DNA of 64,000 nucleotides from Cyanobacteria bacterium auto_48_18 (GCA_036170915.1 JAVHQC010000022.1:32001-96000), one strand, 5' to 3'; positions 21,001 to 27,000 are shown, counted from the first letter of the stretch. Program-made: the numbers.

Positions 21001-24000
21001 GGTGAGCATGTGGCCGTCACCTAAAGCAAAGTGACCAATGTGGCTGAACTTGTGATTGAGTGAGTAAATATCATAGGTGTAGCAGCAGTGCGCGCCACCA
21101 GTCCACTGGCGAACAATCAATTCGTTGATGCCGTCACCAGTTAGATCAAACAATTTGATTTTTCCATGGCCTGCAAAACCCAGATTTGGATGCTCGCTGG
21201 AAGGATCCACAAGGGCAAAGTCATGCGCGCTCTGGTCGAGCAATACGCGACCGGCACGCGTCACCACCAGCCTTTTGTGAAAGTCGTCACCTGTTCTTTC
21301 TTTGATTTGAATTGTAAATTCGTCATGGCGGCCCAAGTGAAAGGTTTGATTATTGTCGGCTGCAGCCATGGCGGCCAGCGGCGCGATTATGGCTGTAAAT
21401 GATACGGCTGTGAATAGTGTAGCTGTGAACACAGCCGCCGCGAACAAACCCACGAGTGATGCGCTTTTTGGCTGATGGTGGCCTGAGGTCATGTTTCCGC
21501 CAGGGGCGCGTATTCTTCTTCACTTAAACCAAATGTCCAGGCCACGGCTTGTCTTGCCCGCATCATATTTGGTGGCACACGTAGAAAGTATTCTTTAATC
21601 GTTCCGTCAGGTTCTGGTGTAGAGTTTTGCACTCTCACCACAAGAATAGGCTCATCGCTGGCCAGGTTCATGCGGTATAAAATGCCGCATTGATCCTGGT
21701 GAATTTTAATAACTCGGCCTTCGCGCAAGTAATTGTCCAGGCCATATCGTTCGATCAGTACGCGGCGAATCTCAGCATTTGGTTCAGACTCGATTAAGTC
21801 AAAAGTAAGGGGTTCAGGCAACAGCACAACGTAGGCGGGCACGAGCACTCCGTGCCAGGCATAGATGCCCCAGCCATCGCGAAATTTCATGGCCATGTCG
21901 GTTTCGTTATGCAGACGACTGCGATTATCGCGGTGCAATGTCTCTGGCTTTTCGGTCAATATGCAAACATTTTCAAATGGCCACCACCAGCTGCTGGTCT
22001 TGGCTAATTCAATCAAACCGTGCAATGGTGCAGTACCTTCCACCCCAATTTGGCTGACAAAGTCATAGTAGGCGAGCCAACCGCTATCATGCTGACCAAA
22101 GCCGCCGTCCCACTTTTGCAAACCGGCAAGTACACCGGCCATGCCGGGCACCACCTGTCTGAGCGGTTCGGCAACGTAACTCCACACCTGTTGGTGCAGT
22201 GGTTTAACCAGTTCGTGATAGATTTGATCAGCAACCGCAGGCGAAAGTCTGCTGTCGATTTTTGCTTTGACCTCGCCTTCGGCCACTGCGCGAATCTGCT
22301 TGTAGACTGAGCTTCCGGCCAGTTGCCTGAGATACTTCCAGACATAAATGCCAAGATTTTCTGCGAAAAGATCCTTTACTTGTTTTTCAATGGCAATGCC
22401 ATGTTTTTCTGCAATCTTTTTTGTAGCAGCCTGGCGAATATTGCGGCGCACCGCCTGCCAGGTTTCGGGGCCAACCATTTCGCCCACAGTCTTGAGCGAT
22501 TGTTGCCAGACTTTATCCCAGACATCGACCTGTCCGGTGTTGAGCTGAGCAGGCCAATCGACGTCGCTGTAGATAAGCTTCATGGCCGTATTTCCGGCCC
22601 AGGGTGATTGCAACCAGATAAAAAGTCGCGGCGGCGCGAGACCAGCTGCGCGGTAGGCTTCTGTGGCGGCGGCTTCAGCTTGCGCGCGGTCGCTCGGGCT
22701 GGTGGAAAAACCAATTCCGCGCCACTTGATGAGGTTTTCTTCTAAAAGATGTTGATCAGCAGGAGGAAGCCAGGTGACGGGCCCACTGTCAGTCGATGAC
22801 ATCTCGAGGAGGCGCCTCCGGTACATATTCTCTTTGTTGCACAACGCGATAAACGCCTTCGGGCAAGAATATTGTGCCGTGCTCTTCGTGCACCAGGTTT
22901 GCACCGCCGGGTTTTGTCACTACGTACCGTTCGCCTTTGGCGGTGAAGAATGAGGCGGTGTCAGTGCTGATGGCGTGGGCGTGTCCTGTCACTTCACCAA
23001 ATTGCAAGATGATGCGCTTCTCGCATTCTACCTCTCGCGCTTCAGCCGGCAGCCTATCAATTTTTTGTACGAGCACATCACCCTGTCTGTAAGTTTGAAA
23101 CTTGATGGTTGGGCGGTCGCCTGTGCGGGTTTTTAAAAGCATATGATTTCTCGACTTTAAAAATATTCGGATAAGTGAAAGTCCATTACTTTATCTGCCC
23201 AGTCAGCTTCATGCTGAAACTGTGCAATGAATCAAACGGTTAACAATTTATCGTATCAATTCAACGCATTAATGCGCGAATGCCATAACGCATGGCGTGA
23301 TTGACCGTGGTGCGAGCCACTCGCGCGCCTGTACGCTTGGCTTGGGTTTTGATTGGGTGCGCTTTTGGCGTGTTTCCAATCATGGGCTGACTGGCAAGAT
23401 CTGCACCAGGTGCGATTTTGCCTGAGGCGTCGAGATATTGCTCGTGTTTGTCATAAGTTGGCTTGCCATAGTCTGAATAATGCGCCACGTCAAAGCGCTC
23501 GTAGGGCTCAAAGGGGTGAGTCGCCATGCGTTCGTGCATGACTATGTCTACTGTTTTGACATTGCGAGGCGGAGTTTCGCCGGTGGCCGGGTTTACCGCC
23601 CTTACGTTGTAGAAGAAATCGGAGGCAGGTTTTTTGGCTTCATATTTTAAATCGAAACCTTGCATGTGACTGCGTTTGCTCATGCCCGGGTCGTGTGTGG
23701 CAATATGGGCCGTTTGCAGTTTGGCAAATTGGGCTTTTTTGTCAGCCAGGCTTAATTCTGGATTGACCCAGATAGCATTGAGCTCTTTGGCCAGACCAAA
23801 TTCGTGCGCTAAATCTTCAGCGTGCCAGTAACCGGGCAAGCAGGTCAAAATTGTGCCGTCAGCGGCCAATACAAAAATCTGCAAATTATGCGGCCCGGCG
23901 CCGTTGGTTGTATCAACCGCGGTCTCATCCGGCTTATGTTTGCCTGAAGCCCCGGCATATTTCTGATTTTCGATGTTTCTGTAGCCCACGACAAAATCGT

Positions 24001-27000
24001 CTTTGAGCATTGAAAAAACTGGTTCTGTTGAGAGCGACACGGCCCTCAGGCTATTGCCGGCACTTCACGTACTGCCGTCAATTTTGCCCAGCATATGCAC
24101 CCAGACAATTAATTTGCCTGACCGTGACGCCTCGATTTGAGCTTTATTGAGCGATTTGTACCACTCAACCTCGCTTACGAGCTGGTGCACTCTGGCCGAA
24201 CAAACTTCGCCACTCAGCACCTGCTTAGCGGCCTGGGCTGGAGTTGCCAGCAGGGTAAGCATGGCAAGAGCTAATGTTTGGGAACTAATTTGCCGAAAAC
24301 GCTTCTGTAGCATGACAGTTCTCTTGCCGGTGACTTGGAGGCTTTCACATTTTGAGTACGTGATGTGTAGACAATATCTTCTTTTAAGAGTATTGCAAAG
24401 TGAAAAAAATTGCTTTGACCGGGCGTAGTTTATCGGCTACGAACGTTTGCTGAACGGGCAAGATGATAAAGTCGAAACTATGTACCTGGGTCAAAGCGCT
24501 AAGCGCTTGCTGGACAACCTGCATGAATCATAAAATTAGTCATGCCAAAGTGAGGATCGGAGTAGTATGCGTGTACTTCTAGTAGAAGACAGCTTGGTGC
24601 AAGCTGACGTCGCTCGAAGCAAGCTAGAACAAAGAGGGGTAACCGTTGAGTGTGCAAAGACACTCATGGAGGCTATCGACTTTTTGCAAAATTCTGATTT
24701 TGACGTGATTCTGTTAGACCTTTCGTTGCCTGACAGTCAAGGCGTTGAGACTTTCTACCGAGTGCGCGCCGCTGCGCCTGATATTCCAACGGTTGTTTTA
24801 ACTGGAATTGACGATCAAGACGTGGCGCTCACAGCTTTGAAAAAAGGGGCGCAAGATTATCTCGTCAAAGGCCAGGCCAGTGATGACTCTGTTTATCGCT
24901 GCCTCGGTTATGCCATCGAGCGCAACAACGTAGAACTGGCGTTAATTCGCAGTGAAAAACGTTTGCGCATCATCGTCGAAAATACTTACGACGCATTTAT
25001 TTCAATGGATTCGCACTGGCGCATTACTGATTGGAACGCGCAGGCTGAGCGCACTTTCGGATATAAAAGACAGGAGGCACTGGGGCGTCCGTTATCAATG
25101 ATTGTGCCGCAGCATTTGCGCCGCCAATACACGCGAGAAGTGGCAACCTTCTTCAAAAGTGATGAAGAAGATGATTTTTCGCGCATGCATAGCGAGCTGA
25201 TGTGCACTCACAAAGACGGTCATGAATTTCCCATTGAGATGGGAATTTTTAGAGTGAGAGTGGATAACGGTTGCGTTTACTGCGCATTTGGCCGTGACAT
25301 TACCGAACGCAGACAATTGAACGAAGAACTTGAGCGCCGCGTACAGCTGCGCACCACTGAACTGACGCGCTCAAACGAAGAACTAAAGCAATTCGCTAAA
25401 ATTGCTTCACACGATTTGCAAGAGCCACTGCGGGCGGTGCAAGGATTTGTTAATTTGCTTTCTGAGAGCACAAAGGGCCAGCTCAACAAAGACTGCGAAG
25501 AGTTCATGGAATATATTCTGGATGGCACTCATCGCATGCAGCAATTAATTCAATCTGTATTGCTGCACTCAAGCATTACCAATCATGACAATGACTTCTC
25601 GGCGGCGCCGTCGACTGATGTTGATGGAGTTATCGACGAAGTTCTTGCCAACCTCGATGCTTCGATCAAGGAAAATCATGCTACTCTCGAAGTCGATAAC
25701 TTGCCTGAGGTAGCCGTTGATCGCTCGCAGCTAATTCAGCTATTTCAGAATCTGATTAGTAACGCTATCAAATATCGTGGTGATCAACCGCCGCAAATAT
25801 TCATTACAGCCGAGCGAACTGTTGATGAATGGCTGTTTTCTGTAAGAGATAACGGCATCGGCATTGATTCAAAATATGCAGATCGAATATTTGATATGTT
25901 TGCCCGTCTGCATGGCAAGACAAAGTACAAGGGCACAGGCATGGGCCTGGCCATCTGTAAAAAGATCGTCGCATTGCACGGCGGCAGAATTTGGGTGGAG
26001 TCGGAATTAGGACAGGGGTGCATATTCCTATTTACTCTACCAGCAGCAAGAAGACCCCCGAGGAGAGCGGCCATGGATACTAATATAGAAATACTTTTGT
26101 TTGAAGATACACCTTCAGATGTGCGCCTGACGCAGGAAGCGTTGAAGCGTTCTGATCTGAAATATACGCTCCAAGTTGTTAACGACGGCGTTGAAGGGAT
26201 GGATTATCTCAATGAAGTGAAGCGGTCTGAGACCAAACGCTTGCCTGATTTGATTCTTTTAGACTTGAACATGCCACGTAAAAATGGCCACGAAGTGCTG
26301 GAAGAAATCAAAAGCGATAATCATTTGAAGGGAATTCCAGTGGTGCTTCTCACTGTGTCGCAGCGCGACGAAGACGTAATGGAAGCTTTGAAGACCAAGA
26401 TGAACTACTATCTGGCTAAGCCAATTACTTCTGCCAAGCTTTCAGTGCTTGTGAGAGCCATTTGTGAATTGCAGGCTGAAAATGCCGGCGGTGAACGTCA
26501 TCCGGTAGAAGAAGAAACGCATGTGCGGCTGGTGCTGGCAGGAAATCCACACACATCACCCACAATTTTGGCCAAGCTGGCCACTGATGCCAATGCTCGT
26601 GTACGTGCTCGAGTTGGTGAGAATCCAGAAACTCCAGAGCATTTGCTGACCAAGTTGGCTGATGATGAAGATTCTGATGTACGCCTGGGCGTTTCTGAGA
26701 ACCCAAATATTCCTGCTGCACTGCTCGAGAAATTGGCTAAAGATGCCAATGAAGATGTGCGGTTGTCCATTGCCGGAAATCACAAAGTGCCTAATACGAT
26801 TCTATCGGCCCTGGCCGAAGACCAGAACACCTTTGTGGCCGCTGGTGCAACTAAAACACTAGCTGAACTGGCAAGCGGTTCGCGGTCTTAGATTCAGGAC
26901 AAAAACTGAAACAGGTGGGTTTAATCTTTGAAAACTGAAGCGTGCACGTTTCAGTTTTTCAGAGTGCTTCCTGCAGTTGCTGCTGAAATTGTTTTCTCGT

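Follow-up and report, generated by a model that had tools for sequence, protein, structure and literature searches.

A gene split at an in-frame TGA most likely encodes an exported thioredoxin-like selenoprotein in non-photosynthetic Cyanobacteriota

The closest described systems are the DsbD-gamma, Thioredoxin_7 (PF13899) and Thioredox_DsbH (PF03190) domains, the Trx7/PDZ domain-containing selenoprotein (NCBIfam NF041199), and the single-nucleophile proteins AGR2/AGR3 and the 1-Cys/1-Sec peroxidases (GPx, 1-Cys Prx). In AGR2/AGR3, GPx and 1-Cys Prx, one nucleophile is resolved by an external thiol, and cysteine is the usual partner of selenocysteine (Sec) among homologous proteins. The gene studied here lies on the minus strand of a 64,000-nucleotide stretch of the Cyanobacteria bacterium auto_48_18 genome, hereafter the window, in which position 1 corresponds to contig position 32,001. 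The two pieces into which it had been annotated most likely encode one exported thioredoxin-like protein with Sec at its active site. The features of the locus, all on the minus strand, are as follows.

23261-24313, minus strand: complete probable selenoprotein gene of 350 codons, interrupted once by an in-frame TGA; all of the 30 best related loci keep the frame
24230-24313, minus strand: putative signal peptide, residues 1-28, read by eye (basic KRFR, hydrophobic LALAMLTLLA, A-Q-A, then cleavage)
23765-24196, minus strand: predicted thioredoxin-like (DsbD-gamma / Thioredoxin_7-like) domain, residues 40-183 (AlphaFold2 model, VIA-align, Foldseek)
24065-24067, minus strand: probable Sec codon UGA, residue 83; TGA in 48 of 50 related loci, TGT/TGC in the other two
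24029-24048, minus strand: SECIS-like hairpin, stem (U)GAGRGC, loop CGUGUC, stem GCUCUC(N), beginning 16-17 nt after the UGA
23885-23911, minus strand: loop T-T-N-G-A-G-P-H-N, residues 135-143, defined by conservation; precedes strand 144-149 in the model
23354-23764, minus strand: C-terminal domain, residues 184-320 (~140 residues), defined by conservation and modelled separately
23264-23353, minus strand: basic helix at the C-terminus, residues 321-350, modelled with low confidence; its last residues form a conserved RYGIR-like motif

The reading frame runs through 82 codons to the TGA (contig 56065-56067) and continues for 267 codons to a terminal stop codon that is also TGA (23261-23263). 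The genome-wide survey's note had described three paralogous genes, each split at an in-frame TGA, and re-reading the genome reproduced their coordinates and frames: the second lies at C16:90945-92048 on the plus strand (TGA at 91224-91226, 367 aa) and the third at C22:441060-442421 on the minus strand (TGA at 442161-442163, 453 aa). The motif HMLGxI(D/E)GxT-TGA-SAGNSLRAVSLS is common to all three, and the downstream ORF of the gene caller starts at a GTG inside this invariant motif. The 188 homologs claimed for the family were likewise recovered; among the best 120, 114 were 214-290 aa long and only six were full length.

The TGA was found at the same codon in 30/30 of the best loci from other genomes, with residues conserved on both flanks (W51, G76 and G80 upstream, A85 and R90 downstream). 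A further 20 loci, two of which had been chosen for having no stop, carried TGA in 18 cases and Cys in those two, so that the TGA is kept in 48/50 loci at identities down to ~40%. Opposite the TGA, the full-length proteins among the best 120 homologs have Cys (P0007, P0020, P0023), Ser (P0016, P0017) or Trp (P0099), and Cys is also aligned to it in L044, L045, P0128, P0165, P0174 and P0254-P0256. The TGA is thus conserved across one bacterial order, whose few Cys forms, like its Ser forms, branch from within the Sec forms; every distant homolog has Cys instead (6/6 outgroup rows, the clusters of two of which include members named Planctomycetota). A 38-base degenerate pattern of the TGA plus hairpin occurred once in the window and in none of 100 shuffles; this and the TGA shared by all 30 best loci go well beyond what chance would give.

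The hairpin (6-7 bp) falls inside the codons for L-R-A-V-S-L-S, at a spacing from the UGA that we take to agree with the published bSECIS distance rule. Among 43 distinct sequences, each of the six core pairs was kept in 40 to 43, and across the seven pairs counted, 91% of cells were paired, compared with 35-65% when the partner was slid. No pair was altered on both sides in these 43 sequences, the folding energy was unremarkable (-13.8 kcal/mol, z -0.89, with 38 of 200 shuffles folding as well), and no Rfam family matched the hairpin. In the 43 Sec rows, codon entropy was 0, 0, 0.17 and 0.37 at A91, V92, S93 and L94, whereas 45 other conserved four- or six-fold degenerate codons gave 0.76-2.46. 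Two Cys-form loci encode the same amino acids at positions 91-94 with other codons (GCG GTC TCT/TCA CTT). Synonymous codon choice in the hairpin is therefore fixed in sequences with the TGA and unconstrained in those with Cys, a pattern that identifies the hairpin as a SECIS-like element.

Otherwise TGA behaves as a normal stop codon in this genome, closing 384 of the 1451 long ORFs, and the tRNA-Sec (C16 c[70006,70101]) is the only tRNA with the anticodon UCA. As in the survey's note, the tRNA-Sec was recovered together with selB and selD, both scoring above the cut-offs, and selA was not found in the 86%-complete bin. The near-complete relatives carry selA in 4/4 cases. Contig C27 opens in a tandem repeat, and the same repeat lies ~1.1 kb from selA in a congener (G193), so the missing selA is attributed to a contig break ~1 kb from the position of the congener's gene. 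The genome also holds an AhpD-like gene of a known selenoprotein family (CxxU, TIGR01926, 117.7 bits); five genomes examined for a formate dehydrogenase selenoprotein yielded none. The conserved TGA, the Cys homologs, the constrained hairpin and the Sec machinery support the reading of this TGA as selenocysteine, and from them we infer Sec insertion: the gene is very probably a genuine selenoprotein gene.

Export is suggested by the signal peptide, in line with the survey's description of a secreted protein; the N-termini of other homologs are signal-peptide-like, and the model has a low-confidence N-terminal helix. The best VIA-align match of the AlphaFold2 model (pLDDT 85.5) was 3f9u_B, with Z 10.1 and an rmsd of 2.5 across 110 residues; DsbH, DsbD-gamma and AGR3 came next. 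The Z scores against DsbD-like, DsbH and AGR3 structures ranged from 10.1 to 7.7 over residues 40-207, and nearly all of the 50 VIA rows shown were thioredoxins or thioredoxin-like domains; the best Foldseek E value was modest (1.3e-3). In the model, strand 68-74 leads to Sec83 and helix 84-93, with U-S-A-G at the helix start. The survey's placement of Sec at the first active-site Cys agrees with this secondary-structure position and with a weak profile alignment, in which the match to the first Cys of E. coli DsbD C-V-A-C was not significant (E 0.044, probability 1.2%). Distant Cys homologs matched Thioredoxin_7 at E 6.3e-5, below the cut-off. A thioredoxin-like fold that places Sec in the active-site position is, in our judgement, quite probable.

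A dithiol motif (CxxC, UxxC or CxxU) is absent: the sequence is U-S-A-G, or U-S-A-A in some paralogs, and holds one reactive residue only. No resolving Cys is conserved, C158 being Ala or Val in L023, L024 and L028. Within the loop at 135-143, T135, G138 and G140 are invariant, and conservation reaches 90% or more at N137, A139, P141, H142 and N143; this loop is likely the equivalent of the cis-Pro loop beside the active site. The C-terminal domain has the invariant residues R214, S215, D221, D256, H260, R262, P267, F268, F274 and G283. It packs onto the thioredoxin fold in the model, with high confidence to about residue 280, and the basic helix that follows (320-349 in the model) has a pLDDT of about 50-55. 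Modelled alone (pLDDT 73.3), the domain found no relatives (VIA Z at most 3.5, Foldseek E 3.7 at best). Its reported lack of a Pfam match was confirmed and extends to the fold level in VIA and Foldseek.

The lack of Pfam and NCBIfam matches for the read-through proteins was also reproduced. The window protein had no Pfam hit better than E 0.21, its paralogs had none either, and no NCBIfam (release 20.0) hit was better than E 0.1. Among the distant Cys homologs, the best PF13899/PF03190 score was 23.5 bits against a Pfam gathering cut-off of 27. The survey's note had left room for the family being catalogued already, and none of the 119 prokaryotic selenoprotein families in Table 1 of a 2026 review corresponded to it when the full table was compared and Pfam and NCBIfam were scanned, scans that reach the families with models there but not those with only cd/PTHR identifiers or no domain identifier. 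Most likely this is a new selenoprotein family, without a family model, beside the 119 catalogued ones.

Among 301 genomes of the class, 76 had both the family and selA, 10 the family only, 8 selA only and 207 neither. The 10 family-only genomes were all MAGs (64-93% complete), and selA was not found in 9 family-carrying genomes besides the auto_48_18 bin. selA was matched in three taxonomic families of the class (f1-f3) and the U-S-A-G protein family in two (f1 and f2); in these 301 genomes the protein family was confined to one order of non-photosynthetic Cyanobacteriota, and UGA forms were seen only in the selA-carrying order. The protein family falls into at least six paralog groups, and a genome carrying it yields between one and six matches. 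The same genome holds a second secreted Trx7/DsbH-like TGA gene (G000:C5:71219-72241, motif W-U-P-G-K, 341 aa), which has TGA in 32 of its 33 matches across genomes of the U-S-A-G family and was not picked up with the window protein at E 1e-10.

The preferred explanation is that one exported periplasmic protein of 350 residues would be made by decoding UGA codon 83 as Sec, the hairpin 16-17 nt downstream recruiting SelB with Sec-tRNA(Sec) to the ribosome. Sec would then occupy the attacking-Cys position at the N-terminus of the active-site helix, with Gly or Ala (U-S-A-G/A) in place of the second Cys of the usual CxxC, and the family-specific C-terminal domain would pack onto the DsbD-gamma/Thioredoxin_7-like fold. 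Single-selenol redox catalysis would be the most likely chemistry: the selenolate would attack a periplasmic substrate in oxidised form (a disulfide, persulfide, sulfenate or peroxide), and the resulting Se-S or Se-OH intermediate would be reduced by an external thiol. The redox role is argued by analogy, because Ser forms exist, no resolving Cys is conserved and comparison of gene neighbourhoods found no conserved neighbours pointing to a pathway; a periplasmic single-Sec redox enzyme is somewhat favoured on that footing. The existence of Ser forms implies that part of the family either is inactive or functions with no redox-active residue. The explanation as a whole, combining selenoprotein gene, fold and redox role, is judged probable. 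A wider scenario is held only tentatively: a new periplasmic selenoenzyme, its active site made up of Sec83, the invariant TTNGAGPHN loop and the His, Asp and Arg residues of a novel-fold C-terminal domain, may have radiated into the at least six paralog groups and, with the W-U-P-G-K family, be a main reason for the lineage to keep its Sec machinery, with a single origin of Sec from Cys and two or more reversions.

The chemistry could differ from this. Sec83 might be a ligand of a soft metal or metalloid (Cu, Hg, As, Se, Mo/W) instead of a redox nucleophile, in a periplasmic binding or trafficking protein or in a metalloenzyme completed by invariant His, Asp and Arg. Such a role would suit a U-x-x-G motif without a resolving Cys, the many invariant residues (H126, H260, D152, D167, E171, D221, D256, R214, R262) and the new domain packed confidently on the thioredoxin fold. 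It is nonetheless unlikely, as no metal-binding family or fold was matched in Pfam, NCBIfam or VIA and the thioredoxin-fold selenoproteins of the 2026 catalogue are mostly considered redox proteins. A metal-binding protein would still be a selenoprotein, and the decoding evidence would apply to it equally.

Two other explanations dispense with Sec. Read-through of UGA-83 as near-cognate Trp or Cys, or by other recoding, would leave the gene whole without a selenoprotein; the selA gap in the bin and a hairpin with neither covariation nor significant energy would fit this. It is very improbable, given that the only UCA-anticodon tRNA is the tRNA-Sec and TGA is a common stop, that selB and selD are present and the selA gap is attributed to a contig break, that UGA forms are limited to the selA-carrying order, that homologs have Cys and not Trp or Gly, and that the synonymous constraint is confined to UGA forms. 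If the TGA were a true stop, the locus would hold either a pseudogene or a pair of genes, one for an exported peptide of 82 aa and one for a protein of 259 aa, in keeping with gene callers and public records, which give the downstream piece only, as do most of the best 120 hits. The comparative data effectively refute this: the predicted thioredoxin fold spans the TGA, the natural Cys forms are one continuous protein, the downstream ORF would start within the invariant motif, and the single TGA with its conserved flanks persists in nearly all of the related loci.

In public records, the family is present only as shortened 'hypothetical proteins' of ~250 residues, and reading the UGA as Sec restores the signal peptide and active site in hundreds of database entries. 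The selenoprotein reading adds a family in which a domain without a known fold is joined to a U-x-x-G centre that is unusual for its single Sec, and a lineage-specific selenoproteome for a clade with named members labelled Melainabacteria/Obscuribacter, for which only one annotated Sec protein was noted in the literature searched, in one paper. A hairpin frozen in Sec forms and released in natural Cys forms is also a clean natural experiment on SECIS constraint in coding sequence. The protein is at the same time one more member of the well-known thioredoxin-fold selenoprotein class, and its function is predicted.

Compared with known systems, the proposed mechanism is the same in kind as that of AGR2/AGR3 (CxxS), GPx and 1-Cys Prx. 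The modelled protein would share with them a thioredoxin fold in which a single reactive chalcogen sits at a helix N-terminus; AGR3 (3ph9, Z 8.1) was among its top structural matches, and no sequence relationship to these proteins was detected. The Trx7/PDZ domain-containing selenoprotein is likewise bacterial with a Thioredoxin_7-type domain. It was the only hint from an NCBIfam selenoprotein model, given by the Cys-form L044 (E 0.12, model positions 2-24, not significant) and not by the window protein. Unlike that CxxU protein, the window protein has Sec at the first motif position instead of the last, no PDZ domain and another C-terminal domain. The W-U-P-G-K protein has a signal-peptide-like start, a similar size and a Sec that aligns with that of the window protein (hhalign E 4.2e-4, probability 34%, 124 columns); the thioredoxin-like part alone aligns, the C-terminal region and hairpin differ, and its distribution is patchier (33/101 genomes). 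Unlike the DsbD-gamma, Thioredoxin_7 and DsbH domains, the window protein has no Pfam hit, U-x-x-G/A in place of C-x-x-C, an 8-residue loop before the active residue, a ~30-residue insert with TTNGAGPHN and the extra conserved C-terminal domain of ~140 residues without a fold relative. With these domains it appears to share the fold (3f9u_B as above, DsbH 2ju5 Z 7.8, DsbD-gamma 1vrs_D Z 7.7), the exported location and the reactive residue at the N-terminus of the active-site helix; its N-terminal pattern 'W..sL..A..eA....KpI' is similar, and its distant Cys homologs match their models just below cut-off (E 6.3e-5, 1.4e-4).

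The target gene was read as a single frame (window 23261-24313, minus strand) of 82 codons, a TGA at 24065-24067, 267 codons, and a terminal TGA; the residue at the in-frame TGA is called Sec83 here. Gene calling with table 11 split it into an 82-aa ORF and a 259-aa ORF, and the start assigned to the latter was a GTG within the conserved motif of the family. The two paralogs named in the genome-wide survey's note were both recovered, each with one TGA inside the same motif as the target gene, HMLGxI(D/E)GxT-U-SAGNSLRAVSLS:

C16:90945-92048, plus strand, paralog, 367 aa read through
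C22:441060-442421, minus strand, paralog (group C), 453 aa read through

Paralog group C (C22:441060-442421 and the loci L046 and L048) carried an additional C-terminal extension of ~100 residues, helical-repeat-like by eye, to which no Pfam model was matched. The public records of the family were truncated 'hypothetical proteins' with entry names such as Candidatus Melainabacteria, Obscuribacterales, and Cyanobacteria bacterium.

Among the 1451 ORFs in the genome with 400 or more codons, 384 ended in TGA, and the sole tRNA with anticodon UCA was tRNA-Sec. The selenocysteine machinery was found as previously noted, and selA was again not found in the bin (86% complete):

C16 c[70006,70101], tRNA-Sec
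C1:72475-74544, selB, match above the model cut-off
C6:163497-164423, selD, match above the model cut-off, no internal stop

All four near-complete relatives checked, among them a single-contig congener, had selA. In the congener G193, a tandem repeat (G193:C1:5185505-5185837) was located ~1.1 kb away from selA. Contig C27 of the auto_48_18 genome started inside the same repeat (C27:1-98), at which the assembly probably broke, and an EF-Tu-like gene (weak match to the selB model) was found at a similar distance past the repeat in both genomes. Because of this shared arrangement, an assembly gap is the most likely cause of the missing selA. In the class sample (301 genomes), the family and selA were both present in 76 genomes, the family was present and selA not found in 10 (all multi-contig MAGs, 64-93% complete), selA was present and the family not found in 8, and neither was found in 207; the counts are descriptive only, as related genomes are non-independent.

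The sequence 3' of the UGA was AGY GCN GGN AAY AGC YUG AGR GCC GUG UCG CUC UCN, in which GAGRGC / CGUGUC / GCUCUC made up a hairpin with a stem of 6 bp, extended to 7 bp in some sequences, that began 16-17 nt past the UGA. Each of the six core pairs was retained in 40 to 43 of 43 distinct Sec sequences, and with all seven counted pairs included, 91% of cells were paired vs 35-65% when the 3' partner was slid. Codon entropy was compared over 49 conserved codons of 4- or 6-fold degeneracy and was lowest at A91 (0), V92 (0), S93 (0.17), and L94 (0.37); the remaining values were 0.76-2.46, with the next-lowest also inside codons 86-90. These frozen synonymous sites are a stronger argument for the putative SECIS-like element than the pairing. 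The two Cys-form loci retained the amino acids L-R-A-V-S-L, but with the codons GCG GTC TCT/TCA CTT, and the nucleotide constraint thus tracks the UGA, not the protein. Compensatory changes in the hairpin were searched for among the 43 distinct Sec sequences and none were found, the 48 nt past the UGA folded no better than shuffles (z -0.89), and no Rfam family was matched in window 23800-24350 at E up to 10. SelB would insert Sec at UGA-83 under the guidance of the downstream hairpin, a proposed route that is well supported.

The read-through target protein was searched against the 301 genomes of the class, and the family was matched in 86: the window's own genome, 82 of the 96 other genomes of its family, and all three genomes of the sister family in the same order. 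No match was obtained in the 201 genomes of the other nine families. Within the class as sampled, the family was found in just one order, whose named members are labelled Melainabacteria/Obscuribacter. Among the matches listed, all but three had the in-frame TGA; two of the three were Cys forms and one spanned only residues 86-349. On re-reading, TGA was at the same codon in all 30 best loci, and a further 20 more diverged loci, among which two without a stop were deliberately included, had TGA in 18 cases and TGT or TGC in 2.

In a profile search against 1.8 billion representatives (E up to 0.001), 1100 relatives were retrieved, and the majority among the 150 listed were pieces flanking the Sec position, which either started at most ~10 profile positions after it (profile 86-101) or stopped at position 81. 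Full-length distant relatives with Cys at this position were P0128, P0165, P0174, and P0254-P0256 (members named Planctomycetota occurred in the P0165 and P0174 clusters), and a few very divergent relatives had Ala or Pro. The most distant Cys forms served to root a quick maximum-likelihood tree. Its six outgroup rows were all Cys, the 52-row ingroup was Sec with two Cys or Ser lineages nested deep within it, and paralog group C formed its own clade with long branches. This nesting suggests that Cys was replaced by Sec once and that at least two reversions followed; the history is tentative, given the long outgroup branches and the use of the quick tree method alone.

The N-terminus of the target protein resembled, by eye, a Sec-type signal peptide whose cleavage site would follow A-Q-A (residue 28), and its homologs had similar starts. 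An AlphaFold2 model was built from 48 sequences (pLDDT 85.5, pTM 0.79), and the thioredoxin fold suspected from the genome-wide survey was borne out in it: residues 40-207 matched thioredoxin-fold proteins in VIA-align.

Structural matches to residues 40-207 of the model (VIA-align)
3f9u_B, DsbD-like exported cytochrome c biogenesis protein, Z 10.1 (rmsd 2.5, 110 aligned)
2lst, thioredoxin, Z 8.9
3ira, domain of a conserved protein of Methanosarcina mazei (entry title; no family given), Z 8.3
4fyb, thioredoxin-fold protein, Z 8.2
3ph9, AGR3, Z 8.1
2ju5, DsbH, Z 7.8
1vrs_D, DsbD-gamma, Z 7.7

The best Foldseek E-value was 1.3e-3, and the family profile had no match among PDB sequences at E up to 10. 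In the ESM Atlas, the natural Cys form P0007 retrieved unnamed clusters at 0.93, for which Cyanobacteriota was the commonest phylum, as well as clusters of the Thioredoxin_7 type at 0.77, and nothing else. Residues 184-320 constituted a conserved domain with invariant R214, S215, D221, D256, H260, and R262, for which the survey had reported no Pfam match; neither Pfam nor NCBIfam models were matched, and when the domain was modelled alone, no structural relative emerged, the best match having Z 3.5 in VIA-align and E 3.7 in Foldseek. The last element of the protein was a basic C-terminal helix.

In the model, strand 68-74 was followed by Sec83 directly ahead of helix 84-93, and the predicted position of Sec83 is where CxxC proteins have their attacking Cys. 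When the profile was aligned to the C-terminal domain of E. coli DsbD, Sec and Gly86 were paired with the first and second Cys of C-V-A-C, respectively; the alignment was not significant (E 0.044, probability 1.2%). The centre of the family is U-x-x-G (U-x-x-A in some paralogs), without a conserved resolving Cys. C158 was considered for the resolving role and rejected, since three Sec forms, as well as P0165 and P0174 (Cys homologs from the Planctomycetota clusters), have Ala or Val there. The invariant loop TTNGAGPHN (135-143) came ahead of strand 144-149, and its position makes it the likely cis-Pro loop next to the active site; by the order of secondary structure elements, G-P141-H is more likely than L-P160-G to be the adjacent loop.

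The best-supported reading, by analogy with thioredoxin-fold selenoproteins, is that the exported protein would carry out redox chemistry through a single selenolate on the thioredoxin scaffold, together with an external reductant. Sec83 may instead be a metal or metalloid ligand. The family includes the natural Ser forms P0016 and P0017, so a redox-active residue is not needed by all members. The gene surroundings (window coordinates below) gave no pathway hint in the form of conserved neighbours:

21489-22904, minus strand, DUF6745 protein, neighbour of the target gene
22789-23142, minus strand, 117-aa ORF with no family assigned, overlapping the DUF6745 gene
24567-26891, plus strand, divergent hybrid response-regulator/PAS/histidine-kinase with LRV and HEAT repeats

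When flanking ORFs within 1.5 kb of 30 family loci were clustered, none was conserved beyond ~14 closely related loci (L001-L014), and thus no operon partner emerged. The promoter and terminator scan gave nothing informative.

The genome was also scanned for ORF-TGA-ORF pairs in which both sides had coding potential and a hairpin lay downstream. All three paralogs of the family were picked up, together with two further genes:

C37:24927-25505, plus strand, AhpD-like / peroxidase-related gene (L063), in-frame TGA in C-F-Y-U, TIGR01926 117.7 bits vs cut-off 81.8
C5:71219-72241, plus strand, Trx7/DsbH-like secreted gene (L062), in-frame TGA in GVPGTW-U-PGK, 341 aa read through

L063 falls in an already known selenoprotein family, which shows independently that the genome uses Sec. 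Its in-frame TGA would divide the gene in standard gene calling. L062 had weak matches to Thioredox_DsbH (E 5.7e-4) and the DsbD-like part of TsoB (E 3.6e-3), and its Sec was aligned with that of the target family (hhalign E 4.2e-4). A search of 101 genomes of the family matched it in 33, and 32 of these matches have an in-frame TGA; L062 looks like a further uncatalogued selenoprotein family. A TGA-ORF near tRNA-Sec (C16:66221-66646) was of low complexity, had no family match, and is probably not real. Eight genomes of the class had selA without the target family (G039, G062, G266, G276, G282, G294, G001, and G008). FdhA, the usual Sec user, was checked in five genomes and gave no match at the cut-off and no in-frame stops. 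Given these two observations, the clade must hold additional selenoproteins yet to be identified.

No Pfam or NCBIfam model was matched by the target protein or its paralogs, in agreement with the survey's note, which had left open that the family was already catalogued. Of the 119 families and subfamilies in Table 1 of a 2026 review of the prokaryotic selenoproteome (PMC13188914), almost all of which are tied to a Pfam, NCBIfam, or TIGR model, none corresponds to the target family. The families of Haft and Tolstoy 2025 carry NCBIfam accessions in that review, and none of those so keyed was matched in the NCBIfam scan. In the parts consulted, the BSepDB (PMC13326102) and deep-Sep (PMC12013277) papers make no mention of Cyanobacteria or Melainabacteria and describe new families different from this one, and a single Melainabacteria protein is reported as annotated with Sec in PMC9529120. 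In the literature searched on selenoproteins or selenocysteine in Melainabacteria, Obscuribacter, and Vampirovibrionia, nothing on the family was found; the candidate lists of Deng et al. 2026 and of Haft and Tolstoy 2025 may bear on priority. The family is a genuine selenoprotein family of the thioredoxin-fold kind that had not been modelled before; its single-Sec centre is unusual and its C-terminal domain is novel.
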